In this document: in pieces, positions 5,405-33,500 of the stretch
Layout of the letters: each line of letters begins with the position of its first letter
Numbering within the stretch: position 1 is the stretch's first letter
Assembly: GCA_965216065.1 (NCBI GenBank)
Contig: CBDCFB010000001.1
Location: 77,802 to 141,801, forward strand
Source: Dehalococcoidia bacterium
GTDB lineage: Bacteria > Chloroflexota > Dehalococcoidia > Lucifugimonadales > UBA3495
Direction: 5' to 3'
DNA: 64,000 nt
Notes under the pieces: generated by a model
The model's database searches: none
What the model was told of the DNA's origin: nothing
The model's input: only the letters and a program-made list of their open reading frames with translations
Position numbers and translations under genes: made by a program

Positions 5405-6280
5405 TCAGCAGAAGGGCAGATCGCCAAGGTTAGAGAAGTCAAAAAGCAACAAGTCGTCTTCCAAGCTGCTTGGCACGCACCCGCTCAAGTCGTTGCCGTT
5501 GAGGTCCAGTTCTACCAGATTGGAGAGGCTGCCCAGCTCCGCTGGTATCTCCCCGCTCAACTCGTTGTTGAGGAGTCTTAGAAATTGCAGGTTGGATAGG
5601 CTGCCCAGCTCCGCTGGTATCTCCCCGCTCAACTCGTTGCCCTCGAGGTCCATATGTCTCAGGTTGGAGAGGCTGCCCAGCTCCGCCGGTATCTCCCCGC
5701 TCAAGTAGTTGTCGCCGAGGTCCAACTCTGTCAGGTTGGAGAGGCTGCCCAGCTCCGTCGGTATCTCCCCTCCCAAGTAGTTGCCGCGGAGGCTCAGCTC
5801 TCTCAGGTTGGAGAGGCTGCCCAGCTCCGCCGGTATCTCCCCTCTCAACTCCCTGTAGCTGTGGTCCAACTTTATAACGCGCCCATCGTCGTCAGTTTTG
5901 ACGCCGTCCCATTCGCTGAGGGGCGCGTCGCTCAGCCATTTGCTCCGGCCCGTTGCGTTGTAGAGGGCAGCCAGGGCTTCCCGGTCCGTTTCGACGGAGC
6001 CGGAGGCCGCGGGCGGCGCTGTCGTAGCCGTAGGTCGCGGCGCAACGGTGGCAGTGGGCGCGTCCACTGCCCCTGTCGTGGAAGGCGTCCGTGCGGGGGA
6101 GGCCGGCGTCTCCGGCTCATCGGTGGCCCGTTCAGAGTCGGGCAGGTCTGTCGGCGCGGCGGTGGCCCGTTCCGAGGACGGCGCGTCCGTCGGCTCATCC
6201 GAGCCGCCGCAGGCCAGCAGCAGCAACGGCAGAAGCAGTGCCAAGGCAAAGATTCCCAGGTAAATCCGTGGCGTTCTCAT
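5405..6280 (-). CDS. Leucine-rich-repeat (plant-type 24-aa LRR) lipoprotein
   Basis: It has a lipoprotein signal (MRTPRIYLGIFALALLLPLLLLAC/GG) and a P/T/A-rich linker. Six units of 'L.GEIPAELGSLSNL..L.L..N' follow. Confidence 0.85.
   Translation of the reverse strand: MRTPRIYLGIFALALLLPLLLLACGGSDEPTDAPSSERATAAPTDLPDSERATDEPETPASPARTPSTTGAVDAPTATVAPRPTATTAPPAASGSVETDREALAALYNATGRSKWLSDAPLSEWDGVKTDDDGRVIKLDHSYRELRGEIPAELGSLSNLRELSLRGNYLGGEIPTELGSLSNLTELDLGDNYLSGEIPAELGSLSNLRHMDLEGNELSGEIPAELGSLSNLQFLRLLNNELSGEIPAELGSLSNLVELDLNGNDLSGCVPSSLEDDLLLFDFSNLGDLPFC
5500..5865 (-). repeat. 72-nt tandem coding repeats (LRR units)
   Basis: Period-72 repetition of '...ggttggagaggctgcccagctccgc.ggtatctcccc...' is visible in the sequence. 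Confidence 0.8.
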
Positions 6281-10889: not shown

Positions 10890-10920
10890 GATAAAGAAAA
10901 GCCCGGCTTTTGCCGGGCTT
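10890..10920 (-). terminator. Rho-independent terminator at the end of the defence operon
   Basis: Hairpin AAGCCCGGC-TTTT-GCCGGGCTT. On the minus strand it is followed by TTTTCTTTAT. Confidence 0.6.
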
Positions 10921-10992: not shown

Positions 10993-11163
10993 TTACTTGT
11001 CGTCGGCCCTGTTCGCAGGGGTGGTGTCGTTCTTCGGAGGTGTCCATGGCTTCCGTTCCCCGGAGGGTGTCTTTGGCTTGGGCTGGCCTCCTCCTCTGCC
11101 TCTTTCTTGCAGGCCTTTTTCTGGTTTGACCTCTCGGGTTTCTGGTTTGTTTTCGTCTGCCAT
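10993..11163 (-). CDS. Hypothetical 56-aa Lys/Pro/Gly-rich protein
   Basis: MADENKPETREVKPEKGLQERGRGGGQPKPK... Its ATG overlaps the TAA of the 39-aa ORF upstream (TAATG). Confidence 0.4.
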   Translation of the reverse strand: MADENKPETREVKPEKGLQERGRGGGQPKPKTPSGERKPWTPPKNDTTPANRADDK

Positions 11164-11282
11164 TACGCTAGCTCCTTGGGGTGGCGGCGGCATTCGGGAT
11201 GCTCGCGCGACAGGATGCCGGCCTTCTGATGGCAGAAGGGGCAGGTGCCGGCGGCTGATTTCAGAAGGGCGGAGAGAGGCAT
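11163..11282 (-). CDS. Hypothetical 39-aa Cys/His mini-protein (MPLSALLKSAAGTCPFCHQKAGILSREHPECRRHPKELA)
   Basis: Hand-translated. It has CxxC...HxxC spacing, lies 13 nt downstream of the preceding gene stop, and is coupled to the next ORF. Confidence 0.4.
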   Translation of the reverse strand: MPLSALLKSAAGTCPFCHQKAGILSREHPECRRHPKELA

Positions 11283-11295
11283 GGGGGTTGTCTTC

Positions 11296-12069
11296 CTAGA
11301 AGAAGCCTGTCTGTTTCGCTTTTTCATAGAGCATGGAAATGGAGGCGACTACTTCACCTACGTCTTTGACAGCCTTGGAGGTTTTTCTTCCCAGTGAGGC
11401 TAATCTTGCCATTCGTGATCTCTTGCTGTCGGGGTGTCTCAGTTGAGGAGTCTTGAGATCCTCCCACTTTTGGGTGTCCCTGATGCAGGCTACGAAGTCC
11501 GCCCCTTTGGGAGTCAGGTACATGGAAAGGGGTGGCTCCGTGTTCCATTCTTCCTCGGCGTGAAAGTATCTGACCCTCAGGAGGCCGGCGAGATCCAGCT
11601 GGTTCAGGTTGTAACTGACTTGGAACTGGTCTCGTCCCATCCAGTGCTGCCGCATAGGGTAACCTGCCGGGAGGTAGGTATGGGACTTGTAGAAGTGCTT
11701 GTCCTTGGATCTGTCGTCTCCGAAGCTGATGGAATATTGCTCCCCGGGCGGTGCTGCATGGGTAAGTTTGCCGTACCACAGGGACTGGTCTCTGCCTGAT
11801 TGTGGACGGACAAGGGTATTAATAACTGGTAGTGGCAGTTCCCTGAAACGCAGTACTTCGTAGTGTCCCTCTTCCAAGGAAGTTCCCGGCTCCCTGTTGT
11901 AGATTCCCAACTTGTCTGCGGAGCCGTCTGGCTTTAGACTCACTTGTTGTTCTCTGTAAGCCAGTTCCCACTCTTCGGCGTCAGCCACCCAGAGTAGGAG
12001 TCCTCTCATGAGTTCGATGTCTTGATTCATATCCCGTCTGTTCGTTCCTTCCTCTCCTTGCTGTCCCAC
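11296..12069 (-). CDS. DUF2513-like winged-helix protein with a large internal insertion
   Basis: The N-terminus 'DIELMRGLLLWVADAEEWE' and the C-terminal 'LTPKGADFVACIRDTQKWEDLK' resemble the two ends of DUF2513 proteins (...LIRKIL..., ...LT..GH.FLD..RD...W). An alternative start lies at 12030. Confidence 0.5.
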   Translation of the reverse strand: MGQQGEEGTNRRDMNQDIELMRGLLLWVADAEEWELAYREQQVSLKPDGSADKLGIYNREPGTSLEEGHYEVLRFRELPLPVINTLVRPQSGRDQSLWYGKLTHAAPPGEQYSISFGDDRSKDKHFYKSHTYLPAGYPMRQHWMGRDQFQVSYNLNQLDLAGLLRVRYFHAEEEWNTEPPLSMYLTPKGADFVACIRDTQKWEDLKTPQLRHPDSKRSRMARLASLGRKTSKAVKDVGEVVASISMLYEKAKQTGFF

Positions 12070-12134: not shown

Positions 12135-14963
12135 TCACACAGCCCACGGACCTTCCCACCATCTCAGTCTCCCGTCGGCTGCCTCGTATGCTACGACGTC
12201 CGTGGTGACCCTGATGGTCCTGTCCTGAGGATCGGTCACCTTCCAGTGCTTCCCACCTATGTTCTTGGCCGTCCACCCTTCCGGCAGGAGGGCGGGGTCC
12301 CTCAGTGACTTCTCCAGGTCCTCCATCGTGATCCGTGGGTTGAGTGCGGCGTTCCGGGTGTCCCACATGGCGTTCAGCCGGTTGATGTCGAAGTCGTTCC
12401 TGGCCTCTATATTGTCTAGTTCGGCGTCCGGGTCCAGCCCGTCCCTGATGATGGCCTGGATGTTTGCAGCAATGATCGGCGGATAGGCACCCACGTTGTC
12501 CACTATGTCCTTGAACCTCCGCTCGACCGCCTTGTAGGCGTCGTGTTCGGCGGTGTTCTCATAGAAGAGATTCACGACGTCCACGACGGGTCTTTCCTGT
12601 CCGATCCGGTCGATTCTCCCGGCCCTCTGTTCCAAAGTCATGGGGTTCCACGGGATGTCATGGTTGACTAAGGCGGTGCAAAACTGGAGGTTCAGGGACT
12701 CTGATGCGGTTTCCGTGCAGAGGAGGATTCCCTGATTCTCTTTCCGGAAGGCCGCCAGGCGCTCTCCCCTGTCCCCCTCCACTTGGTCCTGACCGTATAG
12801 CTCCGTCACGTGGTTACCGGTGCCTCTGAGGTACTCTGCCAACCATTTCTGGGTGTCCCGGAACTGGGTGAACATCAGGATGTGGGAATGGCCGTCCTCC
12901 CGGAGCTCCAGGATGACTTCGTTCAGCCTGCTCCGCTTGGTGTCTTGCTGAGAAAGTCTCTCGGCCTCCTCTGCCGCCTTCAGCAGGAAATCAACATTGC
13001 TGACCTTTTGGAGGGCGCCTGCGGTCGAATCTTGGTCCTCATCCCAGTCGGCGTCGTTGAGCATGGTTGTCCAGTCGTCGTTGTCCTCCAGCTTCCTTTC
13101 AGCCGCGTTCCTGAGGGTCTGGGCGAAGGCGTAGGTTGATGACCCGAACCTCTTCCGAAATATGGTCCTGATGAACCCCAGGGACTGCTGGCTTATGTTC
13201 CGGTCCCCATAGCATTTCTGAACCACTTCGGTGATTTCGTCGTACAGCGCTCGCTCTTCCGTGGTCATCGTGATCACGGTGTCTCTGACCCGCCGGCTGG
13301 GTATCGGGGCGTTCAACAGGCCCTGTTCCCGGTATTGTCTGAGGAGCTGACGCGTGTGGCGACTCATCAGCCTTCTGGCCGGCGCCGAGTCCTCCATGGT
13401 GTTCATCGCCTGTTTGATTACGGCAGGATCTTGGAGCATGGATTCGATGTAGTCGTCGTTCTCGCTGCTCAGTATCCCGGACACTCTCGCAGTGGGGTTG
13501 GACTTCTTCCACAGGTCTTTCCTGAATTTCCATTCAGGGATGTCTGGTTCCGCGTCTTGATAGAACCTGCGATATTCGAACTCGTTCCATCCCTCTGGCT
13601 CGAGTAGTCCGAACAGGGCCCAGAGTTCCATCTCGTTCATCTGCATGGGCGTGGCAGTGAGAAGCAGCAGTTCCCGAGTTTGCTTGGAGAGCCGGTACAT
13701 CATCCTGAGGTACTGGTTTGGCTGCCTCCTTGTATCGTCATCTACGTCCCTGAATCTCGCCCGGTGGGCCTCATCGCAGATGACCAGGTCGTAGTCGCCG
13801 CAGGTTTGGAGAAACTGTTCGGTGTGCCTAACCAACCACTGCTGGCTGGCTATGCCGAGAGGAGTGTCCCATGCAGGTTGTCCGGCAGGCTCCGTACGAC
13901 CACTTCGGAAGGTCCTGAAGTTGGAGTCGATGATGGGCGCGTCGATGGCGAACTTCATGTAGAGTTCGCCTTGCCACTGCTTGTTGGCAGCCTTGGGCGC
14001 GATAATCAGCACCCTTTTTGCCAGACCCTGGTTCAGCCTGGTTTTCAGGATAACCCCGGCCTGTAGAGTCTTCCCCAACCCGACCTCATCCGCAATGAGC
14101 CGGCGGACCGGAGTTGCGGGGTCTATGTGCTGTTGACGGAACCTCTCCTGGTGGGGCCACAGGCTCGCTGGGATGGTGGCGGCCGTGCTGTCCGGGTCTT
14201 CTCTCAGGGATTCTCTGATGTTGGTCCAGTAGTCTGATGACAGGTCTGGGTCGGTTTGTGGCTTGAGTCGGGGCTTCGGGCGTAGCAGCTTTGGCGTCCC
14301 GGGTGGAGCTTTCTCTATGATGTAGTCCCGGTAGAGCTTGGGAAGGCTGATCACTCGCACTCCGGTGGCCTGGTTGTTCCAGAGGGCTTGAAAGTCCTCC
14401 TCATCTGCCTGAAGGTGAATGAGGGTGTCTCTATCGTTGAATACGTGGGTGGTCTCCCAGTTGGTGGTCCATCCAGAGAGGGTTTCATTCAGACTACCTG
14501 AGAAGGAGACCTTGTTGCCCTCGTCGTCTTCGACGATGCCGTACTTGCCGTGAAAAATAGTCGGCTCCCGGATTGCGACCTTCACTTCCATAATGTCGTT
14601 GGCGACGAGCCACGTCGCCAGTTCCAGATGGTCTCGAGTGAGGTCGTCCGGCTGTGTGAGGAGTAGGTCCTCCCTGTTGTGGGTCTGCTGGAGAGCGGTC
14701 TCTGCCTGTATCTGACCGTCATGGAGTGCCTGGAGGATGTCGGGGCGGACTGTGTGGTCGCAGATGAGTCGGATTCTTCCGTTGTTCCTGATGAGGCCGG
14801 CGGTTCCCGCAGCGGCGGCGATCAGTCCCTTGGCGGTGAAGGTGTAGGTGGTCCGGTCATACCGAACGGCTTCGCGGAGCAGAGGTTCGTACAGTCCGGC
14901 GATCATGTCCGGGCAGTTGCTGTGGTTGTAGACCGGTTTCAGATTCAGATCGGTGAGGGACAT
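12135..14963 (-). CDS. PLD-family (HKD) nuclease domain fused to an SNF2-family helicase
   Basis: HKD motif 'FHGKYGIVEDDEGNKVSFSGSLNET' at aa 137-161. SNF2 motifs are 'DEVGLGKTLQAG', 'VICDEAHRAR', 'LLLTATPMQ' and 'QRAGRIDRIGQ'. Confidence 0.9.
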   Translation of the reverse strand: MSLTDLNLKPVYNHSNCPDMIAGLYEPLLREAVRYDRTTYTFTAKGLIAAAAGTAGLIRNNGRIRLICDHTVRPDILQALHDGQIQAETALQQTHNREDLLLTQPDDLTRDHLELATWLVANDIMEVKVAIREPTIFHGKYGIVEDDEGNKVSFSGSLNETLSGWTTNWETTHVFNDRDTLIHLQADEEDFQALWNNQATGVRVISLPKLYRDYIIEKAPPGTPKLLRPKPRLKPQTDPDLSSDYWTNIRESLREDPDSTAATIPASLWPHQERFRQQHIDPATPVRRLIADEVGLGKTLQAGVILKTRLNQGLAKRVLIIAPKAANKQWQGELYMKFAIDAPIIDSNFRTFRSGRTEPAGQPAWDTPLGIASQQWLVRHTEQFLQTCGDYDLVICDEAHRARFRDVDDDTRRQPNQYLRMMYRLSKQTRELLLLTATPMQMNEMELWALFGLLEPEGWNEFEYRRFYQDAEPDIPEWKFRKDLWKKSNPTARVSGILSSENDDYIESMLQDPAVIKQAMNTMEDSAPARRLMSRHTRQLLRQYREQGLLNAPIPSRRVRDTVITMTTEERALYDEITEVVQKCYGDRNISQQSLGFIRTIFRKRFGSSTYAFAQTLRNAAERKLEDNDDWTTMLNDADWDEDQDSTAGALQKVSNVDFLLKAAEEAERLSQQDTKRSRLNEVILELREDGHSHILMFTQFRDTQKWLAEYLRGTGNHVTELYGQDQVEGDRGERLAAFRKENQGILLCTETASESLNLQFCTALVNHDIPWNPMTLEQRAGRIDRIGQERPVVDVVNLFYENTAEHDAYKAVERRFKDIVDNVGAYPPIIAANIQAIIRDGLDPDAELDNIEARNDFDINRLNAMWDTRNAALNPRITMEDLEKSLRDPALLPEGWTAKNIGGKHWKVTDPQDRTIRVTTDVVAYEAADGRLRWWEGPWAV

Positions 14964-15427
14964 TGGGAAATCGCCTTTCCTGTCAGGTATGTTTGTAGGA
15001 GAATGAGAGCCTGAGTGAAGGATTCCTCCTTGTACATTTCGGCCTGCTTTTCGGCTATGAATAGTGCAAGGGTTTTGGGTACGGGCAAGAAGGGCGGATC
15101 GCCGTATGGCAAAGTCTTAGGCTGTTCGTTATTTTCGATTTGACACCATAGGCGGATTATCAGTTCCGTATTCTTGACGCTGACCTTTGTGCGGTATTCT
15201 CCTACTGTTGAGTCTTTCAAGCTGATCCCGTGAGGGTCTCTGTGGTTGTGCTGAAGTGTGAAAGGAAGACCTGCGTAGATGGTCCCTCTGAATATTCTGT
15301 GATCTGCCGATGCTAGACCTAGTTGAGCATCAATTAACACTTCGAAGAGAAGGGTCTTTTCCTTGGTGTCATACCAGAACTCGGCGGCATCATGGATTGG
15401 GAAATGGGGAGGATGTATCGCCATCAC
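14945..15427 (-). CDS. Hypothetical 160-aa protein
   Basis: Ordinary amino-acid composition. It overlaps the helicase start by 19 nt within the operon. I recognise no family. Confidence 0.55.
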   Translation of the reverse strand: MMAIHPPHFPIHDAAEFWYDTKEKTLLFEVLIDAQLGLASADHRIFRGTIYAGLPFTLQHNHRDPHGISLKDSTVGEYRTKVSVKNTELIIRLWCQIENNEQPKTLPYGDPPFLPVPKTLALFIAEKQAEMYKEESFTQALILLQTYLTGKAISQCPSPI

Positions 15428-15485
15428 TGGCTCCTCAGTGAGTGGTGTTCACTGGTCCTGTTACCTGCAGTTCCTTTTTGCGGTG

Positions 15486-16349
15486 TCACCGGGATTCGAA
15501 GGTCATCCATCCTGACCGGTTGGGTGAGCTGGAGAAGAGTCCTCTCTGAGAGCGGCTAACCAACTTCGGTATGTGGATTTGTGGTTCTCCTGCCTGCCTA
15601 ATCAAGATTGCGAATGGCTCTCCTCCCGACACCATTTGAGCGGCCTGTATCTCGCTTCCACTCCACTGGTTCCCCCAGTCAAGCCTAACCCGAACAGTAG
15701 CATCCTCTATCACGAATTCGAGTTCCTCGTTGTCGTTTACCATCCGTATCCAGCCGGTTGTGTCTCCGAATAAAAAGGCCGCATTCTGCTGTGGTTCTAC
15801 ACCTTGTGGAAGTGGGGGTGTCTCCGCGGGCGCTATGTAAAATACTCCGAATGTGGGGCCGGCACTCACTGTCGTTGGTTCCGGAACGCTCGGATCTCTT
15901 CCATCTTTGGGCCGGGGACCTCCGAGCCTCTCCTTTATCATCGTGGCAATCCCCTCAATCGTATGATCGTTGGAGTTCAACAAATTGATCCCGGCTAAGG
16001 ATGGGCTGTGACTTCTGATCTCTTCAATGGTGATACCGTGCTGGATGGGAAATAAGTGCATTCCCTCGCCCATCCGCCTCTGGAATATCCCGTCCAGTTC
16101 GTACTGGGTCCAATATTTGTCGAAGAAAATTCTCGAGAGAATTACCGTGGCGGATCGACAGGCGGAGATTCCTTGGTCGATTCTTTGTCGAATGCTTTCT
16201 CCCCAAGGTATGTCGGACTCGTCCAACCATGCGTGTAGCCCTAGCTCCGTAAGGGCCTTGTGTAGCGGTCTGGCCAGGGTTTCCTTGTCCTCGCTGGCAT
16301 GGCAAATGAAGGTGTCGGGTTGCTCCGAATTGTTCGGGCGATGCAGCAC
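15486..16349 (-). CDS. TIR-domain protein with an unknown C-terminal domain
   Basis: 'FICHASEDKETLARPLHKALTELGLHAWLDESDIPWGESIRQRIDQGISACRSATVILSRIFFDKYWTQYELDG' is a classical bacterial TIR, including WxxxE (E84). I do not recognise the ~130 C-terminal aa. Confidence 0.85.
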   Translation of the reverse strand: MLHRPNNSEQPDTFICHASEDKETLARPLHKALTELGLHAWLDESDIPWGESIRQRIDQGISACRSATVILSRIFFDKYWTQYELDGIFQRRMGEGMHLFPIQHGITIEEIRSHSPSLAGINLLNSNDHTIEGIATMIKERLGGPRPKDGRDPSVPEPTTVSAGPTFGVFYIAPAETPPLPQGVEPQQNAAFLFGDTTGWIRMVNDNEELEFVIEDATVRVRLDWGNQWSGSEIQAAQMVSGGEPFAILIRQAGEPQIHIPKLVSRSQRGLFSSSPNRSGWMTFESR

Positions 16350-16384
16350 GGTCGGTGTCCTTTCTCTGTCTGTTTTGTGTAGGG

Positions 16385-19300
16385 TTACAAGAGCCTTTCT
16401 TGCACTCCACGGGCTATTGTCGGTTCCGGCGCCTCTTCCCCGTACAGTGCCTGCCAGAGGCTTCTCTGTGCCTGGTGGTCGTCGTGGCCCAGCTTCGTTG
16501 TACGGATCAGGGCCTCCAAGGTGTACTTGAACCGTTCGTCCTGAGGGTTATAGAGCTTCTGCGTCAGCCATTGCTGCGCGTCCAGAGTGTTGCGGCGCCC
16601 GGTGAGGGCCACTGCCGTGTGTACCAGGTCCAAGTTCGTCTTTGGAGTCTGGTTATCACCAATATTTCCCGCCGCCATCCGGTCCTTCGCGCTCAGGAAA
16701 GACACCTTATCGGTCTTGAAGGTCGCTATGCTCTTCATTCCCGGGTCTTGTTTCTTCAGGCTGGTGCCTAGCGCCCTAGCCAGAAGGTTCGCTTCGTCGA
16801 ACTCCATCACGGCTCCGCCGTTGGCGTCGTTGGCAAGGATGTAGAACTTTGTCGCATCGTCGACTGGGCTATCGGCCCAGTCCTTGCTGATCGCTTCTGC
16901 CCGATGTTTGCTCACCTCTGCCCGGGCGACTTGGAGGGCGTCCGTGGGGGTAACTGAAAACGGGTTTGCCCGTCTGTCCTCAATCGCGGTTTCGCGTTCA
17001 GTGCCCCAGTGTTCACTAATGACCTTGAGGGCTGGGCCGAAGGCGCTCAGATATAGGTCGATGGGTTTAAGGTCAGCTTGACTCAGGTTGTCTCTGATAT
17101 CATCTTGGACTTCCTTGGCTATGAGTTCTTCAACCCTGTGCCATGGTTCGGGAGTCGCGTTTGCCTCACGGGGTCGGCAGACCAAAAGGATGGTGGTGCG
17201 GGCGGCGGCTCTGTCCTTGATGTGAATTGATGACTCTGCCTCGGTCTTGATGGGCCAGGTCCGGGTAATGCTGAACCCGGCATTTATAAGTGCTACCGTC
17301 AACGCGTCCCAGGCCGCGGTGGACTTGTGGGTGAACATCACGGTCATGATGCCGTCCGGTTTTATCACCCGTCGACACTCGGTGAATATCTCGGCCATCT
17401 TGGCCTCGTAGTCCTGGGTTGCCAGTTTCCTGGCAGACGTAGCCTTCGTGCCGGTTCCATTGAACCGGGCCGGGCTGGCTATGGCCTCCAAGTCCTTCTC
17501 GGAAAGGTGTCTGGTGAAATCCTCGGGAAAGATATACCCGGCAGTTCGCTTCAGCCAGACGTAAAAGAAATCGGATAGTTCAGCATAGTTGACGTTGGCT
17601 TCGTACGGAGGGTCGAATGTGATGCAGCCTACGCTGCCGTCGTTCAGTTGAGATATGAACTGGGCCTCGCTGTTAATCACTTCGGATGGCGTAGGGATGC
17701 TTTTCGGCTTCTCCGGGCTTAACATTTGCCCGGGGGTCCCGCTTTGATTGGTCATCTCCAGTAAATCATCTAGGCATTCCTCGATGTCGGTAATCGCCCA
17801 CTCCAATCCCAGTCCTTGGCAGGCGATGGCCATTTCTGTGTAAGAGCATTTGAACCCAAAGTCGTGGCTGTCGAAGGTGCCCGCAACGACCTGTCTGTTA
17901 GCGTGCCAGCGGCACATCAGACTGTTCGTGTTGAGCAGTTTATCTATGCCGAGCGCTACAAAGATCCAAGCCACCTTTCGTCGTTCCTCCAAGGCCTCGG
18001 TGTCTCGCTCTTCCTCGACACATTCTTGGAATGCCTCCACGCAGTGCCCGTGGGCCAGTTGTTGCCGTGGGCTGAACATTTCCACCCATTTCCTCATGCC
18101 GTGGTTAAGTGGCTCTTTGGTCTTATTTCCGTACGGTATTTCCTCGTCGGGGAGTATTCCTTTTGTGGACCATTGAGGGGCTAGCCGAGCTAACTCTCTT
18201 TCGATGAAGTCTCCGTTGTCTTGGTCTAGGTCAACCTCCAGAAATCCCCGGAAGGTTGTAAGGCGCTTCTTTTCTTTTCCGGCCTTGGTCTTTTCTTTCC
18301 AAGAATCCCGGTAGATTGTGGCATACAGTTGATGGCCCATACGGCCCGCTTGGGCTTCCTTCGCCAAGGACCCCTTGGGCGTAGTGATGCCGCAGGTGGG
18401 TTGAGGACATACGGCGACCGCCCGGGAGGTCGTGCCGGCGCTGGCTTCCCCGTCTGGGTGTAAAGTGGCGGTGTTGCAGGGTTGCTTCGGGTCACTCTTC
18501 CGGCAGTCCGGGCAGGCTCTTCGATCGTGTACAATCCGGAACTGGCATTCCCGTCCGTCGGGATCCAGGCGGATGCCGGTCCCTTTGTTGTCAAGTCGCC
18601 AGTTGGGACTCAGAGGGATTGCGCTATCACAAGCGGGGCATTTCATAGTCCTAGCCCAGAGGTATGCCCAAACGTGCCTCTGCGCCTGGACTCCAGCGTG
18701 GCTCTTCAAACCGAGCTTGGTATGACTGCATGAATCTGGTTCTGGACAGTTCTCTGTACACCGGTACCGCTGCGGATGGGGGCAGTTACCTCCGGCGCAG
18801 TCAGGAAGGGGTTCCTGTGGATAGGCGTCGGACAGCTTCTCGCTGACCCGAGCTAGGAACTTCTGGCTGACTTCCTGATAGTCCTCAAGTAGCTTTCGTC
18901 CGAACGTCTGGGGCCATTCGCAGGTTGCCCTCAGTATTAGGCAGGCGACTGGGTTTAGTTCATTGGCGATGGTCCGGAAGCCTAGCCGTCCGGCCTCAAA
19001 TGGTATGGATCCCCCTCCGGCCGTGACGTCGAGCACGATGGGCGCAGAATCGCCCTCCTCCGTGAGGAACTCAGGGTTGTGGAGGAATGCCCGCTTATTG
19101 GGAAACGAGATGTCGGACCACCCGCCCTCGGCCTTGACGGTATCCATCTGGTTCCGGGCTTTGACAACCTCTGGCGAGGTTCCAAGGCTCGCTATAAATT
19201 TTTCCCTGTCAGTGTCGACCGGGAGCATGGATGCTGCGACCGCAGCCCGGGAGGCTATTAGTGGACGACGGGCCCACCATACGTGTAACTGGTTTACAGG

Positions 19301-19402
19301 TGGGTGGCCAGCCAGCGCTCCGCCTTCTCTGATTGCCTCAACGCTTATCTCGTTGATGGGCAACCATTGTTCGATGAGTCGCTCGGTCTGATCGGTCATC
19401 AC
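16385..19402 (-). CDS. DUF1156-type DNA methyltransferase with Zn-ribbon inserts
   Basis: N-terminal 'IEQWLPINEIS...NQLHVWWARRPL' is the DUF1156 signature. 'VLDVTAGGGSIPFEAGRLG' is SAM motif I. Several CxxC clusters are present, and 'ITFDPPYEANVNY' is motif IV (DPPY). Confidence 0.9.
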   Translation of the reverse strand: MMTDQTERLIEQWLPINEISVEAIREGGALAGHPPVNQLHVWWARRPLIASRAAVAASMLPVDTDREKFIASLGTSPEVVKARNQMDTVKAEGGWSDISFPNKRAFLHNPEFLTEEGDSAPIVLDVTAGGGSIPFEAGRLGFRTIANELNPVACLILRATCEWPQTFGRKLLEDYQEVSQKFLARVSEKLSDAYPQEPLPDCAGGNCPHPQRYRCTENCPEPDSCSHTKLGLKSHAGVQAQRHVWAYLWARTMKCPACDSAIPLSPNWRLDNKGTGIRLDPDGRECQFRIVHDRRACPDCRKSDPKQPCNTATLHPDGEASAGTTSRAVAVCPQPTCGITTPKGSLAKEAQAGRMGHQLYATIYRDSWKEKTKAGKEKKRLTTFRGFLEVDLDQDNGDFIERELARLAPQWSTKGILPDEEIPYGNKTKEPLNHGMRKWVEMFSPRQQLAHGHCVEAFQECVEEERDTEALEERRKVAWIFVALGIDKLLNTNSLMCRWHANRQVVAGTFDSHDFGFKCSYTEMAIACQGLGLEWAITDIEECLDDLLEMTNQSGTPGQMLSPEKPKSIPTPSEVINSEAQFISQLNDGSVGCITFDPPYEANVNYAELSDFFYVWLKRTAGYIFPEDFTRHLSEKDLEAIASPARFNGTGTKATSARKLATQDYEAKMAEIFTECRRVIKPDGIMTVMFTHKSTAAWDALTVALINAGFSITRTWPIKTEAESSIHIKDRAAARTTILLVCRPREANATPEPWHRVEELIAKEVQDDIRDNLSQADLKPIDLYLSAFGPALKVISEHWGTERETAIEDRRANPFSVTPTDALQVARAEVSKHRAEAISKDWADSPVDDATKFYILANDANGGAVMEFDEANLLARALGTSLKKQDPGMKSIATFKTDKVSFLSAKDRMAAGNIGDNQTPKTNLDLVHTAVALTGRRNTLDAQQWLTQKLYNPQDERFKYTLEALIRTTKLGHDDHQAQRSLWQALYGEEAPEPTIARGVQERLL

Positions 19403-19531: not shown

Positions 19532-20176
19532 TTAGTTCCAATTCATCTCCATAACCATAGGCAATTCGTATTCCCCAACTGCGAATTTGCCGATGAGTAC
19601 AGGTCGCCCCCATATCTCACTCTTGTGCTTGGCGATCTTGCAAGATGGTATTAACGTCGAAGGGTTCGGGAGTTCTAGTTTGGGAAGGTATCGTGGTAGA
19701 TTCTCTCCTGATAAAGGTCTTGCCGCCTTTTCGTGGGCCTCCACTCGTATAGTTTCGGTGCCTTTAATAATCTGGTGTGTTAACGTCCCCTGTGAAAGCA
19801 GTTGTTCGGCAACCATCATCAGCAGGTCGTTCTTACTCCCTGGAGTTTTAAGTTTCCGTCGGAGCTTGAACAATCGTGCCTTGTTGAAGTTGGGACCTTC
19901 CGGCATCGGCCAGTCAGGTATGACTTCTTTCGCAGGGACATGGATTTTCAGTTCAGTGATTACAATTGCAGACCTGCCGTGATTGGTAACAACCACGTCT
20001 ATTGTGTTAGGGTCGATTCTCGTATTCACTACGATCTCGATGGATGCTATCACTCTTTGTTTGTAAAGGTAAATCAGGAGCGCTGCGAGCAAACTGAGTG
20101 CCAAGGCTATGAGAGCTGTGACCACTGCTTGATATAGCCAAGGTATCTGTGACATTGTTGGGCCTTCGGTTGGCAT
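19532..20176 (-). CDS. Hypothetical single-pass membrane protein
   Basis: N-terminal TM 'LYQAVVTALIALALSLLAALLIYLY' followed by a ~170-aa soluble domain. It starts 6 nt after the upstream stop. Confidence 0.6.
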   Translation of the reverse strand: MPTEGPTMSQIPWLYQAVVTALIALALSLLAALLIYLYKQRVIASIEIVVNTRIDPNTIDVVVTNHGRSAIVITELKIHVPAKEVIPDWPMPEGPNFNKARLFKLRRKLKTPGSKNDLLMMVAEQLLSQGTLTHQIIKGTETIRVEAHEKAARPLSGENLPRYLPKLELPNPSTLIPSCKIAKHKSEIWGRPVLIGKFAVGEYELPMVMEMNWN

Positions 20177-20182
20177 ACGCTC

Positions 20183-20620
20183 TCATCCGTACATCAGGGT
20201 CAGAGCTTCCATCACCTTCTTTGGTCTGTTCCGATTCCGGGCGCACGCGTACCACCAGGAGCTCTCACAAGGGTGCATGTCCGCGATGGCTCGGCCCAGC
20301 GATTCTGCTTCCTGGATGCCTTCGACGTGTCCCACCGCATCCATCAGGAGCCGGATCTGCACCGCCTCCTCCTCGCTGAGGGGGTAGTATTGCTTGGCTT
20401 CGACGTCCTGGGGTTGAAGTCGCTTTCCCTGCATCTTCCACAGGACGGTGGAGGCCGGTTGGAAACACCGGTCGTAAAGGTCCCCTGCAGCGTTCTGAAG
20501 TCGGCGCCCGTTCCTCTTGGCCGTTCTGCCGGCCAGGGTTATGGATATTCGACGCATCCCCTTTGGGTCGTGGTCCAGTAGCAGCCCGTGGTCCTTGTCC
20601 GTTTCTCTGAGCAGTGTCAT
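20183..20620 (-). CDS. Hypothetical 145-aa protein
   Basis: It starts 26 nt after the DUF499 gene stop and has ordinary composition. It sits where DUF3780-like genes often accompany DUF499/DUF1156, but I cannot confirm that family by eye. Confidence 0.6.
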   Translation of the reverse strand: MTLLRETDKDHGLLLDHDPKGMRRISITLAGRTAKRNGRRLQNAAGDLYDRCFQPASTVLWKMQGKRLQPQDVEAKQYYPLSEEEAVQIRLLMDAVGHVEGIQEAESLGRAIADMHPCESSWWYACARNRNRPKKVMEALTLMYG

Positions 20621-20646: not shown

Positions 20647-23583
20647 TTACTCATATTCTGCCCTGATCCTGGCGGTGTGGCTGTTGTTGAGTTTCCCCAG
20701 TATCTCTTCCGCTCCCTTGGCGTCCGTTCTGATGGTTACGTCAGCGGTGCCCACATCCGCCAGTTGCAGCATCCTTCTGGCTGAGCTCGAGAATTTCTTG
20801 AAATCCTGCGGGCTCAGGTTCCTCAATTCCAGGTTGATGGCCTGGCTGAACCCGGTGAGGGACATGAGTATTCCCTCCCCTGCTCCCTGGGGGATGCTGG
20901 CCACGTGGTCCGCGAATTCCGGGGCGGTTGCGGTGATGGTGCAGGACTTCATCTCATCCCAGGTGTACCCCTGGGCCTCCATGAATTCCTTGACCGCGGT
21001 CGCGGCTACCCCGGCCTGGGTGAACTCGGTCTCGATGGACTTCGGTTTGGCGGGAACGGGTTCCTCGTCCTGTTGCTTCCTTTGCTCTTCCTCTTTTTCG
21101 CCTTCGTGAAACTCTTCTTCTTTCTGAGTATCCTTGGTCCTATCTGGCTTGTATGGGGTCGCCCACGCCTTCCAGTTGGCATCGTATCCGCTGGTGGGGT
21201 TGACCTCCCCCGCCTGGGTTTCCACGTACAGTCCCCCGTTCTGGATGCCTGTCTTCACGAGGTTGAGCCAGGCCTCCTGGTTCAGCACGCTCCGCTCGGC
21301 CGGCCTGGCAGCGAAGTATTCCCTGAGCTCCCGGAGGGTGATTCCTTCGTCTCCTCTCAGGACTTGTATCTGCTCCCAGGCGTTCGGGCTGATGTTTGCA
21401 CCGGTGCCGTGGAGAATCCTGTCTCCCAGTTGGTCTATGATCTGCTTCTGTCCGTTCCCGGCCGGGTCAGCAGTTGAAGATAGAGGCCGGTGTTCCAGCG
21501 TGCTGCTGGACGTGGGCCACCGGAGGTTGTCGCTAATCCCGGGACAGATCAGATGGCTCCACTTGTTCTGAATGCCGGTGGTGGCGTTCTTCTCTGCCTC
21601 AGCTCTGATGCCCTCGAGAGTCTTCCTACGATGTTCCGGGATGTTTTGGTTCTTGTCCTTGAGGAGCCTGTCGGCGGCCTCCATCGTGGCGATGGATTGC
21701 CTGATGCTTTCCAGGTTCCTGTCCTGTGGGACCAGGAACATCGCATTGTTGCGAAACCGGCGTGGCTCGGTCCCGTTGTTTCCCATGTTGTGGGAGTACA
21801 GGTCCATCAGATCGCTGTTGCTCATCTTCATAGTGCTGTCTTGGTAGTCGGCCCAGTTGAAGAAGTCTGGGTTGACTATCCCCAGATGCACCTGCTCTGC
21901 ATCGTCCGGGACGTTGCTCGCCCTGTTCGGGAAGACGGTCACCCTCATCTGCGCCTGCGGGTTCTGCTTGTTTCCGCCGGAATAGGCGCTGGTGATGGCC
22001 TTCCGGAGCAGGGCTTCCAGGTTCTGGGTGTCTGCCCTGATCGAGTCTCTCACCTCGATGAGTTGTTTCATGACGTTGGGTTCCCGGCTGAACCTCTTCC
22101 GAGCGGAGCCGGCGTTGTCGTCGACGTGGATGGCCCTGCTCAGGAATGACTGGACTCCAGTTGCTACGACTCCGAAATCCTGGTGTTCGGGGGAGAGAAT
22201 GGCGTCTGCAATCTGGTCGTCATAGAGCCCGTTCACGTTGTCCGAGGCCAGAGTTCCGAGCAGGACGGTCTTGGCGGTTTGTCCCGCTATCTCCTCATTC
22301 AGCTTCGCTGAGGTGCTGTTCGCTCCGACCACGTCGGTATCTATCGCAGGGTCCAGGGATTCGAACCCGATCCTGTTGATCATCTCACTTCGGACCGCCG
22401 GTATGGACGGGTCAATGTGGTGTGGATGGATCAGGGGGGTGGTGTCATTTCCGTTCCGCAGGGTCAGGACCGTGTTTCCGAGAAGGCGGAGTGTTCCCCG
22501 GACTCGCTGGAAGTTCCGGTTGTCAGCCAACCGGCCCGTTATGAGGCTGAGTACCGAAGGATGGAATGGGTAGCATTCCCGGAACCGTTCTTCAGACAGG
22601 ATGTCGTTCGAGCGACTGTTCCTGGATGCGACGGACGCATATGCGGAGGTGGTCTGCTCACGGGCTTCCTCGTCGACGCTGAAGAAGAGCCTGGCCCGAA
22701 GGATGGCGGGTAGGTCCGCCTCCTCTGACGGGGCCAAAGGCTGGGTCTGCCTAGCCAGTTGGGAGTTGATCCTGTCCAGCACGTCGATGAGTGTCAGAGC
22801 ATCCGCCTGGTAGGCGTCGCCCTGACTTGCCGGTCCCTGTTCGGACAGGAGGCCGTGGGCATCCTCCGGGCTGGTGATTATCAGCACCGCGTTCGGGCAA
22901 CTGGATACCGCGGATGCCAGGGCGCTGACGGTGCTGAGGGCACCCTCCAAGCTGATCTGGTCGCCTGAGTCGATGCGCTGTCTTACCTTGTTGATGTAGT
23001 GGACCAGCTCGTCGATCATTATGACCGTCGGTTGGTTTCCGATCAGCCTCCGGAACTCGTCCGCGCCAGGGTCTGTCAGACGCTCGTCCCCTTCCCGGAA
23101 CTGCTGGAGTGCTTCTTCTCCTCCCAGATGGAAGAGAAGGTACCCGGCCAGGCTCTTGGCCCTGAGTCCCTGGTCGTCCAGGTTCATCCCGGTGGTGGGG
23201 TTGGAGTTCTCCCCGTTGAAGGCGACCACTCTTGCGCTGGTAGCTTTTGTCTGGGCGGTCTCCTCCCAGTAGTCAAGGTGTGGATGAAGGGCGGCTGCGG
23301 CCACCACCAGCATTCCGTGGGTCTTTCCTCCGCCGTACCTGCTGTAAAGCTGGAAGATGGACGGACTGGTGCTGGATGCACCGTTTTCCATCCTGTCCAT
23401 GACCATTCTGAGGAGGTCCCGGGTTGAGGAGGTCAGGTGGGTGGTCTGCAGGAAATCTGTCGCTTTTTCAGGTGTTGAGAGTTCTTTCTCTATGCCACTG
23501 ATCAGCTCGGCGGCGTATTGGTCGGCTGCTTGCGAGATGGGCCTGGGAGGGCAGGCTGTCAGGAAGGGAGTGAGCGTTGTCAT
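20647..23583 (-). CDS. DUF499-type P-loop ATPase
   Basis: 'ATDFLQTTHLTSSTRDLLRMV...YSRYGGGKTHGMLV' gives the Walker A and 'VIMIDELVHY' the Walker B. The ~980-aa size is typical of DUF499 partners of DUF1156 methylases. Confidence 0.85.
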   Translation of the reverse strand: MTTLTPFLTACPPRPISQAADQYAAELISGIEKELSTPEKATDFLQTTHLTSSTRDLLRMVMDRMENGASSTSPSIFQLYSRYGGGKTHGMLVVAAAALHPHLDYWEETAQTKATSARVVAFNGENSNPTTGMNLDDQGLRAKSLAGYLLFHLGGEEALQQFREGDERLTDPGADEFRRLIGNQPTVIMIDELVHYINKVRQRIDSGDQISLEGALSTVSALASAVSSCPNAVLIITSPEDAHGLLSEQGPASQGDAYQADALTLIDVLDRINSQLARQTQPLAPSEEADLPAILRARLFFSVDEEAREQTTSAYASVASRNSRSNDILSEERFRECYPFHPSVLSLITGRLADNRNFQRVRGTLRLLGNTVLTLRNGNDTTPLIHPHHIDPSIPAVRSEMINRIGFESLDPAIDTDVVGANSTSAKLNEEIAGQTAKTVLLGTLASDNVNGLYDDQIADAILSPEHQDFGVVATGVQSFLSRAIHVDDNAGSARKRFSREPNVMKQLIEVRDSIRADTQNLEALLRKAITSAYSGGNKQNPQAQMRVTVFPNRASNVPDDAEQVHLGIVNPDFFNWADYQDSTMKMSNSDLMDLYSHNMGNNGTEPRRFRNNAMFLVPQDRNLESIRQSIATMEAADRLLKDKNQNIPEHRRKTLEGIRAEAEKNATTGIQNKWSHLICPGISDNLRWPTSSSTLEHRPLSSTADPAGNGQKQIIDQLGDRILHGTGANISPNAWEQIQVLRGDEGITLRELREYFAARPAERSVLNQEAWLNLVKTGIQNGGLYVETQAGEVNPTSGYDANWKAWATPYKPDRTKDTQKEEEFHEGEKEEEQRKQQDEEPVPAKPKSIETEFTQAGVAATAVKEFMEAQGYTWDEMKSCTITATAPEFADHVASIPQGAGEGILMSLTGFSQAINLELRNLSPQDFKKFSSSARRMLQLADVGTADVTIRTDAKGAEEILGKLNNSHTARIRAEYE

Positions 23584-25514: not shown

Positions 25515-26668
25515 CTAAACCAAAGCCAAGGTGGGATGTGCATTCGCCTGAGGTGAGGAATCGTGTTGGGAATTCGGCAGGAGTGCTTCGGCCCTTGACT
25601 GCAGTACCGTTCGGCAGCGGCACCTCACCTCGTCTCTCCGGCTGGTCAGTCCAGCCAGGAAGTTGCCGACCCTTTCCTGCACCGCCGCCCTGCTGCCCAG
25701 GCAGAGATTGCCCGTCGCCTCCTCTCTCGCCCAGCCCCAGACCGCCTCATCGGCGTTGAAGTCCGGGCTGTACCCCAGCAGGTTCACCAACCGCAGGTCA
25801 AGTCCGGGCGTCCGCAGATATTCCCGCACCGCCTCTCCACGGTGGGCCGGCGCGTTGTCCCAGATGACTTGCAGCGGCCCTGAATGTTTTCCCCTCAGTT
25901 GTTCCAGGAAGGCAACCGAGGTCCCGGAGTTGCTGTTGCCCTCCAGTTCCATCCATTCCACCTCGCCCGTCTCCAGGCACACCGCCGAATAGTAGCTGGC
26001 CTTCTCCCCATACCGCGGGCTGGTCGAATCCACCAACGCAGGTTTGCCTTTAAGCACCCACTTGCCCCGCAATTCCGCATCGGCCCGGAAGTGGGCCTCA
26101 TCCGCGAAAAATATTCTGGCTCCGGTCCGCTGGGCCACCTCTGTCAGGATGGCGTACTCCGCCACAAAGGCCTCCCGCTTGGCATCATCAGCCTTGAGCA
26201 GACGCTTCTTGGGCCGCTTGAAGGCAAATCCCAAACGGTGCAGCCAGTTCAGGCAGCTGCTGCGGCTCAACTCAATGCCGAAGCGCTCTAGGACAAACCG
26301 CCCCACCACCTTCCAATACCAGTTGGCCATTACGATGCCCGACGAAACGGGAGGCTGTTGCACCGCCTCTTTCAATTCCTCCTGCTGCGCCTCGTCAAGG
26401 GCGGGGGGGAACCACCGGTCTGCTCGAATATCAGGGCCGCAGGTCCTCCCTCGCCGAAGGCCGACGCCCAACGGCCAATAGTGTGGGGATCCCTTTCCAG
26501 CCCCTCTGCCGTGGCCGCCGCCGTCAAGCCCTGGGCCAGCAGCAGCATGGCGTACCACCTCTCCCGCTCCCTGGGCGTCGGCGCCAGAATCATCCGCCGA
26601 CGCAAGGCCTTAGCATCCATCTGCCACTGTTCGAGAAACCGGTCTATCTCCCTCACACCCATCACCAA
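25515..26668 (-). CDS. IS630-family DDE transposase (orfA 26372-26668 and orfB 25515-~26410 joined by a -1 shift on a C7 run)
   Basis: orfA has the HTH part ('...AEGLERDPHTIGRWASAFGEGGPAALIFEQTGGSPP'). The orfB frame continues 'ALDEAQQEELKEAV...' and carries 'IFFADEAHF...VIWDNAPAHRG...LLGYSPDFNADE'. A G7/C7 run lies at 26403-26409. Confidence 0.8.
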
Positions 26669-30514: not shown

Positions 30515-33500
30515 CTACTGACCCGGCCCGCTGACGGTGCGCTCCAGGCGGTTGGACAGCTTCTTGTCACCGTCGGCGCAGATGGCCCCCTGCGCGTTGC
30601 AGTCCGTGGTGGCGGGCAGCACGATGGTGACGTCCCCGTTGGAGTCCGGGTTGAAGCTGATCTCCCAGCGGATGTTGCTGCCGCTGACCAGCCGCCGGGC
30701 CCCGTCCATCGTGCCTCCCTCCACCGTGAACGCATGGTCCCGCAGCGTCTTGTAGCTGAAGTTTGTCTCGAGCTCCTCGCTGAAGGAGATCCTGAATTTG
30801 AAGTTGTCGCTGCCGTTGTGGGACGTCGGGACGCTCTCGAAACTTGCCGTCAGCGGAGGCCCCTTGACGGTGAATTTCAGCGGGATGGACAGCATCGTCC
30901 CGTCAGCAGTGCAGATGGCCCCCTGCGCGTCGCAGTCCTCGGTGGCGGGCAGCTCGACGGTAACGTCCGCGTTGGAGTCCGGGCTGACGCTGATCTCCCA
31001 CCGGATGTTGGGGGTGTCACTGTCCCCGTCCAGCCGCCGGGCCCCGACCACAGTGCCGCCCGTCACCGTGAACGCATGGTCCCGCAGCGTCTTGTAGCTG
31101 AAGTCTTCCTTGGGGTCCTCGCTGAACCGCAGTTCGAATTTGAATGCGTCCTGCCCGTTGTGCGACTCCGGCTTGTCGTGGATGGCGGCCGTCAGAGGAG
31201 AGGGCGAGGGCGCGGCAGCCACTGCTACGGTAACGTCGCTCGTACGGGTCTCCTGGTTCCCCCAGTCGTCGGTGAAGCTCACCCGCACCTTGATGGTCTT
31301 GTCTTCGTCATCGGCGCCAACAGTGTAGGTAGAACCGGTCGCGTCCTGGATATCCGTGTCTTCGGTCCCATCGTTTGCTATCCACTGGTAGGTGAAGGTC
31401 GCGTTGGTCAGCCCGTCGCTGTCTGATATGTTCGATGTTGATGCGGTCAGCGTCTGTCCAACCTGCACCGTACCGCTGATCGCGGGCGCTCCGGTCGCGA
31501 CGCTGTTGGGTATGGCAGCCACTGCTGCAGTCGCCTCGCTGGTCAGCGACTCGTCGTTGCCCGCGTCGTCAGTGAAGGTGATCCGCACCTTGATGGCCTT
31601 GCCTTCGTCTGCGGCCGCCAGGGTGTAGGTCGAGCCGGTCGCGTCAGTGATATCCGTGTCGTCGGCCAGCCACCGGTATGTGAAGGAGGCGTTGATCAGG
31701 CCGTCGGAGTCGGATATGTCCGTGGTATCCGCCGTGAGCTCCTCACCCACCTGCGCCGTGCCTGTGATGGTGGGCTCGCCGGTGGCGAGGGTGTTGGAGG
31801 CCGTCACTGCTGCAGTCGCCTCGCTGGTCAGCGACTCGTCGTTGCCCGCGTCGTCAGTGAAGATGATCCGCACCTTGATGGCCTTGCCCACGTCGGCGGA
31901 AACCAGGGTATAGGTAGAGGCCGTCTCCCCGGATATGTCGGTGTCGGTGTTCCCATCGCCGCGAATCCACTGGTAGCTGTAGGAGACACTGGTCAGCCCG
32001 TCCTCATCGGCAATGCCCGAGATGTCGGCCGTCAGCGTCTCCTGCACCTGGGCCGTCCCGCCGATGGTGGGCAGGCCCGTGGCCGGACGGTTGACCGCCG
32101 CAGCCACCGCTCCGGTCGCCTCGCTGGTCAGCGTCTCGGCATTGTTCCTGTCGTCGGTGAAGGACACCCGCACCTGGATGGTCTGCCCCTGCTGGCTGGT
32201 GGTGAGGGTGTGACTGGAGTCGGTGGCCCCGTCGATGTCCGACCCTCCGGCTATCCACTGGTAGCTGTAGGGAACGTTGGTCAGCCCGTCCTCGTCGGCG
32301 ATGCCCGACGTGTCCGCCGTCAGCGTCTGGTCCACCTGTACCGTCCCGCTGATGGTGGGCAAGCCCGTGGGAGCACGGTTGTCCGCCGCAGCCACCGCCG
32401 CGGTCGCCGCGCTGGTCAGCGTCTCGACGTTGTTGGCGTCGTCGGTGAAGGACACCTTGACCTTGATGGTCTTGCCCTGGTCGGCAGGCACAAGGGCGTA
32501 GGTGGAGCTTTTCTCCCCCTCTATGTCGGTGTCGTTGCTCCCGTCGCTGCGAATCCACTGATAGCTGTACGACACGTTGTCCAGCCCATCCCCGTCGGCG
32601 ATGCCGCTCGTATCCGCCGTCAGTGTCTCCCCCACCTGGGCCGTTCCGCTGATGGTGGGCGCGCCGGTGGCCAGACTGTTGGGACGGGCTGCCACCGCAG
32701 CCGTCGCCGCGCTGGTCAGAGTTTCCTCGTTATCTGCATTGTCGGTGAAGCTCACTCGCACCTTGATGGTCTTGCCCTGGTCGGCAGCAACGAGGGTGTA
32801 GGTCGAACCTGTTGCGTCGGTAATGGCCGAGTCGTCCGCCAGCCACTGATAACTGAAGGTGGCATTGTCCAACCCATCCTGGTCCGCGATGCCCGAGGTG
32901 GAAGCCATCAGCGTCTCGCCCACCTGGACCCTCCCGCTGATGATGGGCAGGCCCGTGGGCGCAGTGTTGGGCTTGGCAGCCACCGTTGCCGTCGCCGCGC
33001 TGGTCAGAGTCTCCTCGTTATCTGCATTGTCGGTGAAGCTCATCCGCACCTTGATGGTCTTCCCAACGTCGTCGGCATCCAGGGTGTAGGTCGAAGAGGT
33101 GGCGTCCTGGATGTCCGTCCCACCGGCAATCCACTGGTAGCTGAACACGGCGTCGTCCAGCCCGTCGGCGTCGGCAATGCCAGACGTGTCCGCCGTCAGG
33201 GTCTCGCCCACCTGCACCGTACCGTTGATGGTCGGCTGGCCTGTTGCCGGAGTCCCCATCACGGTCAGGCTGAGTTCCACCTCGTCCCCGACCGACCAAT
33301 CGACCGTCCCCTTATCCCACTGGTAGGTGTGCACGAACCCGGTCTTCGTGGTTGAGGCGTCCTCGGAGGAGAATGGGACTCCACCCACGTTCAGGGTGAA
33401 GTTGGTGCGAAGCCTCCGGTCCAGTCCGAAGGACAGCAGCCCGTCGTCGCCCTCGACAACCATCTTGACGGTGTAGTCATCGCCGCCCAGCGTGAATTCG

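Follow-up and report, generated by a model that had tools for sequence, protein, structure and literature searches.

A TIR-domain gene and an orphan partner gene in a variable cargo slot of an Hma-type operon from a Dehalococcoidia bacterium

The DNA analysed here is a 64,000-nucleotide (nt) stretch from a Dehalococcoidia bacterium (contig CBDCFB010000001.1, positions 77,802 to 141,801; hereafter the window), which carries at 15486-16349, on the minus strand, a gene for a two-domain TIR protein of 287 amino acids (aa). The gene has a GTG start at 16349, with a GAAAGGA ribosome-binding site 5' of the GTG, and a TGA stop; the plus-strand translation of the same interval is full of stops. The coordinates are exactly those of an earlier note on this DNA, made from the sequence alone, and the list of open reading frames (ORFs) puts the gene on the minus strand. 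The same note described the gene as wedged between a methyltransferase and a helicase gene. It does lie between a DUF1156 methylase gene (16385-19402) and a PLD-SNF2 helicase gene (12135-14963), with 35 nt between the stop codon of the 1005-aa methylase gene and the TIR gene start, but a further gene on the helicase side had been overlooked. This gene, here called small160 (14945-15424, minus strand), encodes an orphan partner protein of 159 aa and starts with an ATG at 15424 for which GAGGAG is the ribosome-binding site; its 3' end overlaps the start of the helicase gene, ATG included, by 19 nt. The TIR gene and small160 are co-oriented and tightly packed in the operon, in which no internal promoter or terminator signal above expectation was found.

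A database search gave at least 165 clusters of TIR-protein homologues, and the 120 listed are mostly 280-300 aa long, with ~97-100% query coverage and 44-90% identity. E84, W80, G50, W200 and W281 are invariant in a 99-sequence alignment of the family, and S52 and K78 are at least 90% conserved. The invariant residues and full-length homologues indicate that the gene and both of its halves are conserved features, not chance, and the ORF list, the Pfam and PADLOC matches and ratios of nonsynonymous to synonymous substitution rates (dN/dS) well below 1 agree with the gene call.

The N-terminal domain (aa 9-144; 15918-16325, minus strand) is a bona fide bacterial TIR domain, as the earlier note had proposed. 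It is matched by Pfam TIR_2 (E=4.7e-16, aa 14-107) and Pfam TIR, and a family profile searched against the PDB matches AbTIR (8g83, 7uwg) at E about 6e-54, as well as BtTIR (7uxr), TcpB/BtpA (4lzp, 4c7m, 4lqc) and PdTIR (3h16), over aa 9-144 only. In BLASTP it aligns with AbTIR over 126 residues, gap-free and at 44% identity. A full-length AlphaFold2 (AF2) model (predicted local distance difference test, pLDDT, 74.8) superposes on AbTIR, TcpB, BtTIR and PdTIR with Foldseek E about 1e-11 and a template modelling (TM) score of about 0.8, the lowest root-mean-square deviation (rmsd), 2.6 A, being to the substrate-analogue-bound AbTIR filament 7uxu. PADLOC gives PDC-S66 (E=8e-49) and ThsB1 (E=2.3e-23), both over aa 5-140 only; the PDC-S66 profile aligns only via its C-terminal TIR (profile positions 144-278 of 282), and the scores of the NCBIfam Thoeris models are far under their cut-offs.

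In the alignment with AbTIR, E84 corresponds to E208, W80 to W204, T81 to T205, G50 to G174, S52 to S176, K78 to K202 and S19 to S143. E208 is essential in AbTIR, G174 and S176 belong to the BB-loop, S143 and K202 contact the diphosphate, and W227 contacts the adenine (bioRxiv 10.1101/2022.05.07.491051). E84, the WxxxE glutamate to which the earlier note had drawn attention, is thus the counterpart of the catalytic glutamate and has no exception among the 99 homologues. The window TIR is of the AbTIR/TcpB class, with all tested catalytic and BB-loop residues kept, the W227 equivalent excepted. With AbTIR, TcpB (BtpA), BtTIR and PdTIR (PDB 7uwg, 7uxu, 8g83, 4lqc, 4c7m, 7uxr, 3h16) it shares the TIR fold, catalytic Glu, WxxxE Trp, BB-loop Gly and Ser, and diphosphate-contacting Ser and Lys. 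Its architecture is reversed: proteins of the AbTIR group have an N-terminal coiled coil followed by a C-terminal TIR domain, whereas the window protein has an N-terminal TIR domain followed by an orphan beta-rich domain. The setting differs too, TcpB having been studied as a virulence factor whereas the window gene lies in a defence operon.

TIR domains of the AbTIR class require self-association for nicotinamide adenine dinucleotide (NAD+) hydrolase (NADase) activity, for which the non-TIR coiled-coil domain has been suggested as a possible driver, and make the cyclic ADP-ribose (cADPR) isomer 2'cADPR (bioRxiv 10.1101/2022.05.07.491051). By analogy, NAD+ cleavage dependent on self-association, probably with a cyclic ADPR product, is expected of the window TIR. 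The domain has dN/dS of 0.06-0.14 and a mean pairwise identity of 71% in the family. Ten IMG/VR viral contigs (L021-L030) encode AbTIR-like TIR domains that are 38-45% identical to aa 12-142, none with the C-terminal domain; scans of viral contigs and JGI metagenomes gave generic AbTIR-like matches covering the TIR domain alone.

Between the two domains lies a disordered linker (aa 145-165; 15855-15917, minus strand; pLDDT <50 for aa 147-164), which evolves neutrally (dN/dS about 1-1.9, mean pairwise identity 25%). It leads into an orphan C-terminal domain (C-domain; aa 166-287; 15489-15854, minus strand), which contains the invariant W200 and W281 and for which an AF2 model of the domain alone predicts six beta strands and one helix (pLDDT 79.4, predicted TM score 0.74). 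The earlier note could not place this part of the protein, and structure prediction with Foldseek and the sequence libraries have likewise given no significant relative. Pfam, NCBIfam, PHROGs and PADLOC gave no match, PDB sequences searched with a profile yielded nothing meaningful, and when the family members were compared one by one with Pfam at E<=5, only isolated, scattered matches came up. Foldseek with the C-domain-only model found no significant neighbour (best E=0.11 in the PDB, 0.04 in BFVD). Phage tail-tube, major-tail, neck and baseplate proteins are over-represented among the weak, non-significant Foldseek matches, which include a Myoviridae tail tube protein (probability 0.87, TM 0.46/0.51, rmsd 4.6 A); this likeness of a predicted model to phage tail-tube proteins is a lead, not a result.

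A hidden Markov model scan of 1.84 billion cluster representatives returned 29 C-domain proteins, 24 of them at E<=1e-10. Eight of the 29 could be annotated by Pfam and all eight carry TIR; no other recurrent domain partner appeared among the matches, the longer of which are N-terminally extended TIR proteins. One protein of 504 aa (P0142) combines TIR, the first half of the C-domain and HEPN, and is either a real fusion or an artefact of assembly or gene calling. The C-domain is under purifying selection (dN/dS 0.09-0.27) and diverges faster than the TIR domain (50% versus 71% mean pairwise identity), a pattern expected of a specificity module. All family members have an acidic C-domain (isoelectric point, pI, about 4.9; net charge about -5), so nucleic-acid binding is not suggested. 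The C-domain is thus a conserved, constrained, fast-evolving, acidic and beta-rich module, essentially confined to this TIR-protein family.

The partner protein is equally without known relatives. No match to small160 was found in Pfam, NCBIfam, PHROGs, PADLOC or the PDB, and hhalign showed it to be unrelated to the C-domain; the sole PDB-profile match (E=0.32) was rejected because it aligns to a His-tag. A profile search delimited a family of 74 clusters, all standalone, unnamed and about 150-200 aa long, with none fused to another domain. Invariant positions in the family alignment are H7, H42, H59, H61 and H65 (HxHxxPHG motif), D19, E28, W17, Y18, R91, W93 and K117. The pattern of invariant histidines suggests a metal or catalytic site, and dN/dS is 0.20-0.34.

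Gene contexts were compared in 15 distinct TIR loci, a sample biased towards metagenome-assembled genomes (MAGs) of Dehalococcoidia. The small160 gene adjoins the TIR gene in all 11 loci in which it was seen, and 24 of the 74 small160 clusters share their exact longest-contig size with a TIR-family cluster, a proxy for presence on the same contig. Intact TIR genes are also found without small160 (L001, L006, L008 and L112), which makes small160 dispensable. These contexts bear on the notion of a toxin-antitoxin or addiction pair, in which small160 would restrain a TIR NADase toxin and the pair would mainly stabilise the operon or island. Tight linkage to a potentially lethal enzyme and the abundance of mobile elements in the loci are in keeping with such a pair, which we nonetheless consider highly improbable: several loci lack small160 but keep an intact TIR gene that evolves under purifying selection, AbTIR-class TIRs are auto-inhibited until assembly and so need no antitoxin, and the gene for the putative antitoxin is the downstream one.

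The pairing of the two genes also recalls Thoeris, in which infection is sensed by a TIR protein that produces a cyclic ADPR-type signal, and this signal activates an effector, which here would be the product of the downstream gene (small160, or a membrane protein encoded in its place in L001). The likeness lies in a TIR protein with weak ThsB-profile similarity, restricted to the TIR domain, beside a dedicated partner gene. That small160 has never been seen without a TIR gene and is translationally linked to the operon, that the identities of the pair co-vary between loci, that L001 has an alternative partner of about five membrane-spanning segments in the same position, and that AbTIR-class TIRs make 2'cADPR, together with the PADLOC ThsB1 match, would all fit this arrangement. 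It is nevertheless rather unlikely to apply here. Intact TIR genes lack a partner in L006, L112 and L008; library searches with small160 revealed neither a known signal-binding domain, such as SLOG, Macro or STING, nor a recognisable toxic domain; and where Thoeris has ThsA, the partner in the window is an unrelated His-rich protein that some loci can do without. The window yielded no ThsA-like gene, nor did the operon or the scanned window ORFs yield a SIR2, SLOG or Macro partner, in agreement with the earlier note that this is not canonical Thoeris.

The surrounding genes confirm the placement of the TIR gene in an operon of restriction-modification character, also proposed in that note, with DUF499, DUF1156 and HKD-helicase genes on one strand. 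They comprise, all on the minus strand, a core gene for a DUF499 ATPase (HmaC; 20647-23583), with the P-loop intact as a GGGKT variant; a small standalone gene matching DUF7680 (20183-20620; Pfam E=6e-12) that is conserved in all related loci; a core gene for the DUF1156 N6-adenine methylase (HmaB; 16385-19402), with the S-adenosylmethionine motif and DPPY intact; and the effector, a fusion of PLD/HKD nuclease and SNF2 helicase (12135-14963) with intact HKD-like, GLGKT and DEAH motifs, the HKD motif being present as the variant HGKYGIVED...GSLN. The nuclease, methylase and ATPase motifs of the core are intact, so no effector has been lost that the TIR protein might stand in for. Judged by gene content, the operon is an Hma system, alias a Type-2 DUF499-centred BREX-related (BR) system, in which genes for a DUF499 ATPase, a DUF1156 methylase and an HKD-helicase effector occur together with a small standalone gene (PMC12839542, NAR 2026). 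The window operon has the ATPase, methylase and helicase genes of these systems on one strand, and its own small standalone gene matches DUF7680, not DUF3780, at E<=0.01. Its closest relatives are all in Dehalococcoidia / Chloroflexota MAGs. The GC content of the operon region is 0.565, compared with 0.615 in the rest of the window, which is consistent with a horizontally acquired island.

The same slot between methylase and helicase holds a TIR gene in 8 of the 15 loci: six with small160, one with the unrelated membrane protein of about five segments and one with nothing between the TIR and helicase genes. One locus is a remnant, in which the TIR-small160 pair is followed by a 120-codon helicase fragment. 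The other six place the TIR gene outside the slot, with or without small160: the pair follows a DUF499 locus of another gene order (L111, L117) or is found by itself among metabolic genes (L004/L005), is decayed (L114), or is represented by a partner-less TIR gene in a defence island resembling an integrative and conjugative element (L112) or among transposases (L008). Viewed from the helicase, 10 reference genomes have this gene, and their slots hold the TIR gene in four, the remnant in one, nothing in two (a gap of about 90 bp) and other cargo in three, namely a pP_pnuc_1 (pPIWI-associated) nuclease (E=7e-35), a ClpP-like SDH protease and two small ORFs. The TIR gene is therefore not a constant Hma component, being absent from 5 of 10 syntenic reference loci.

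The borders of the exchanged DNA are seen against L012, a closely related locus that has other cargo and a helicase matching that of the window at 89% identity as DNA and 90% as protein. In a blastn comparison homology stops at 16423 and resumes at 14966, leaving a variable cassette segment of ~1.46 kb (14967-16422, minus strand) delimited on one side by the last 12 codons of the methylase gene and on the other by the start codon of the helicase gene. Only short, chance-level repeat matches were found flanking the cassette, so we infer, as the simplest route, that the cassette is exchanged by homologous recombination via its conserved flanks.

Several lines of evidence point to a history of the cassette separate from that of the operon. 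GC content at third codon positions (GC3) is 0.60 in the TIR gene and 0.53 in small160 versus 0.67-0.76 in the core genes. The TIR and helicase trees disagree: the TIRs of L010 and L113, which are embedded, are 67-70% identical to the non-embedded TIR of L112 and only 52-53% identical to that of the window, while their helicases are 82-83% identical to the window helicase. Between the window and L115, synonymous sites are saturated in the TIR gene and small160, and the synonymous divergence (dS) of the helicase is 0.56. Insertion sequence (IS) elements (DDE_5, DDE_3) break methylase or DUF499 core genes beside an intact TIR gene in L001 (5837-7015), L010 (3135-4267) and L111 (7415-8716), so the cassette can outlive its host system. 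A single recent insertion was considered and rejected, since the cassette recurs in the same slot beside helicases that are 69-91% identical. The cassette is a recurrently exchanged unit. The earlier note had named a recent independent insertion as something that would refute its reading, and this is largely what the data show: the gene is absent from half of the syntenic loci and has a separate history, but a single recent event and flanking repeats were not found.

These data also bear on the idea, essentially that of the earlier note, that the TIR protein is an integrated backup effector, its NADase being activated as a suicide arm by the Hma complex upon unmodified or foreign DNA, or when a phage inhibitor blocks the system. 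A backup-effector role has been proposed for genes embedded in BR systems (PMC12839542), the slot, orientation and tight packing are the same in 8 distinct loci, and the alternative slot cargo is also effector-like (nuclease, protease). In addition, 11 of the 15 loci are in or beside a DUF499-type system; two of them, L111 and L117, have the pair flanked by the core genes on one side and by a conserved Cys-rich 3'-flank gene on the other, and a remnant of that Cys-rich gene flanks the window operon. We regard such integration as unlikely, though a serious contender. The pair or a lone TIR gene has no DUF499 system within 10 kb in four loci, the slot is empty in two related loci, the tree conflict and the synonymous saturation relative to the flanks indicate swapping, not co-evolution, and the C-domain is acidic, with no interaction surface or domain that it shares with the core proteins having been found. 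The new coupling of TIR activity to DNA sensing that the earlier note had envisaged runs up against the same facts, namely the variable slot, the occurrence elsewhere in 6 of 15 loci, the tree conflict, the low GC3 and the acidic C-domain, and embedding in Hma systems was already published. Obligate coupling is not supported; looser cooperation with the host system is possible.

On balance, the TIR gene and small160 are somewhat more probably than not an exchangeable, largely self-contained TIR-NADase defence cassette, lodged in a cargo slot of an intact Hma operon. In this cassette the C-domain would stand in place of the N-terminal coiled coil of AbTIR and is a probable sensor and assembly module, a role proposed because AbTIR-class domains need self-association, which a non-TIR domain may drive. 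During infection the C-domain would bind a phage-derived trigger, more likely a protein than DNA; for comparison, Thoeris TIR proteins directly sense phage structural (capsid) proteins (PMC12578639). Trigger-bound C-domains would then cluster the TIR domains, an active site would form across two of them, and NAD+ would be cleaved, probably with production of a cyclic ADPR isomer, the loss of NAD+ halting the infected cell (abortive infection). The small160 protein would be a dedicated accessory, helpful and dispensable, whose most likely function is to act as a metal-binding regulator or to process the TIR product. Being embedded in the operon, the cassette would be co-transcribed with the methylase-helicase genes and would add a second layer of defence that works by a different mechanism, without becoming an obligate part of the Hma system.

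Some observations weigh against this reading of a self-contained NADase cassette. The position of W227 in AbTIR is taken by Q103 in the window protein, the sole difference found, so product or activity may differ. The AF2 model of the C-domain is only moderate in confidence. The L001 locus has a multi-pass membrane protein, with about five membrane-spanning segments, in the place of small160, and direct NAD+ depletion fits this less well than a Thoeris-like arrangement of signal and effector would. The association of 11 of 15 loci with a DUF499-type system, including two of different gene order (L111, L117), is stronger than a purely free-riding gene might show, and so leaves room for functional cooperation. 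Lastly, NADase activity, trigger and anti-phage phenotype are all inferred. A bolder version, which appears doubtful, is a two-gene TIR immune system whose beta-sandwich-plus-helix sensor, maybe tail-tube-like, would recognise a phage structural protein, with small160 as a metal-dependent effector or signal processor, and which would nest preferentially in DUF499-type operons and fire on restriction failure.

Both TIR NADases and embedding in Hma systems are already established, and for general biology the finding is incremental. According to Payne et al. (bioRxiv 10.1101/2024.01.29.577857), embedded genes are present in 62.7% of Hma systems, and the cassette resembles these embedded defence genes in its co-oriented nesting between hma core genes, in its variable slot and in the occurrence of the same cargo non-embedded elsewhere. 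The Hma-embedded PADLOC candidate PDC-S66 is its best PADLOC match, through the TIR part only, and the C-domain and small160 match no PADLOC model. Embedded nucleases are listed as backup effectors of BR systems in PMC12839542, where TIR is mentioned 0 times; in 10.1101/2024.01.29.577857 it is mentioned once, in a figure legend, and the TIR-small160 cassette is described in neither paper. What is new is the architecture, an AbTIR-class TIR with an orphan C-domain and an orphan His-rich partner, and the sharply bounded cargo slot with TIR, nuclease, protease and empty alleles. If the cassette defends alone, it would be a new architecture for bacterial TIR immunity, in which both non-TIR components are without a known relative and confined to a small, mostly Dehalococcoidia lineage. 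The slot, with its sharp breakpoints and near-identical flanks, is a natural example of cargo exchange at a defined Hma/BR position and a good test case for distinguishing embedded genes that cooperate with the host system from those that merely share its transcription.

Other parts of the operon vary as well. A second variable slot relative to L012 (20185-19479) holds a gene for a 214-aa single-pass membrane protein (19532-20176, minus strand), which has one N-terminal transmembrane helix, a pI of 9.4, the lowest GC3 in the operon (0.51) and no family match; in related loci this slot holds DUF5677 or other genes. Downstream of the helicase, a 257-aa DUF2513-like gene (11296-12069, minus strand; borderline DUF2513 match at E=8e-7, phrog_585 match) may be further cargo at a third variable position, and a similar gene comes after the DUF499 gene in L117.

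The Cys-rich gene at the 3' side (MPLSxLLKSAAGTCxxCxQKAGxLSRxHxxCRR..., 112-168 aa, no Pfam family) is present in L111 (11400-11738), L117 (8462-8968) and L115 (12777-13130), in the first two directly 3' of the TIR-small160 pair. In the window it is a truncated remnant of ~39 aa (11163-11282, minus strand), and DNA homology to the other loci ends at about 11185. A hairpin resembling an intrinsic terminator (10899-10920, minus strand; 9 pairs, 7 of them G-C, then a T-run) is probably where the transcript of the operon or island ends. The operons of two related loci are closely followed by other genes of defence type, for a 1181-aa SIR2_2 + DUF4020 protein (L002, 16045-19590) and a HEPN_RES_NTD1 + RES protein (L115, 13138-14382). 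On the other side of the window operon, about 2 kb upstream of the DUF499 gene, lies an IS630-type transposase gene (DDE_3 + HTH_33; 25515-26558, minus strand), and no tRNA or Rfam family was found in or near the operon.

Elsewhere in the window, a 543-aa ORF (60154-61785, minus strand) aligns with a Type IIG restriction-methylase profile of PADLOC (E=3.5e-117) in the first half alone, over positions 23-478 of 1086, and is probably a truncated restriction-modification gene. Three very large ORFs on the minus strand, at 30515-41662 (3715 aa), 41732-49831 (2699 aa) and 51739-55407 (1222 aa, with fn3 and Ig-like repeats), presumably encode giant surface proteins. On the plus strand, the translation of an ORF at 5654-5900 contains three near-identical copies of QVGEAAQLRRYLPxQV..., suggesting a tandem DNA repeat of roughly 75 bp that may be non-coding.

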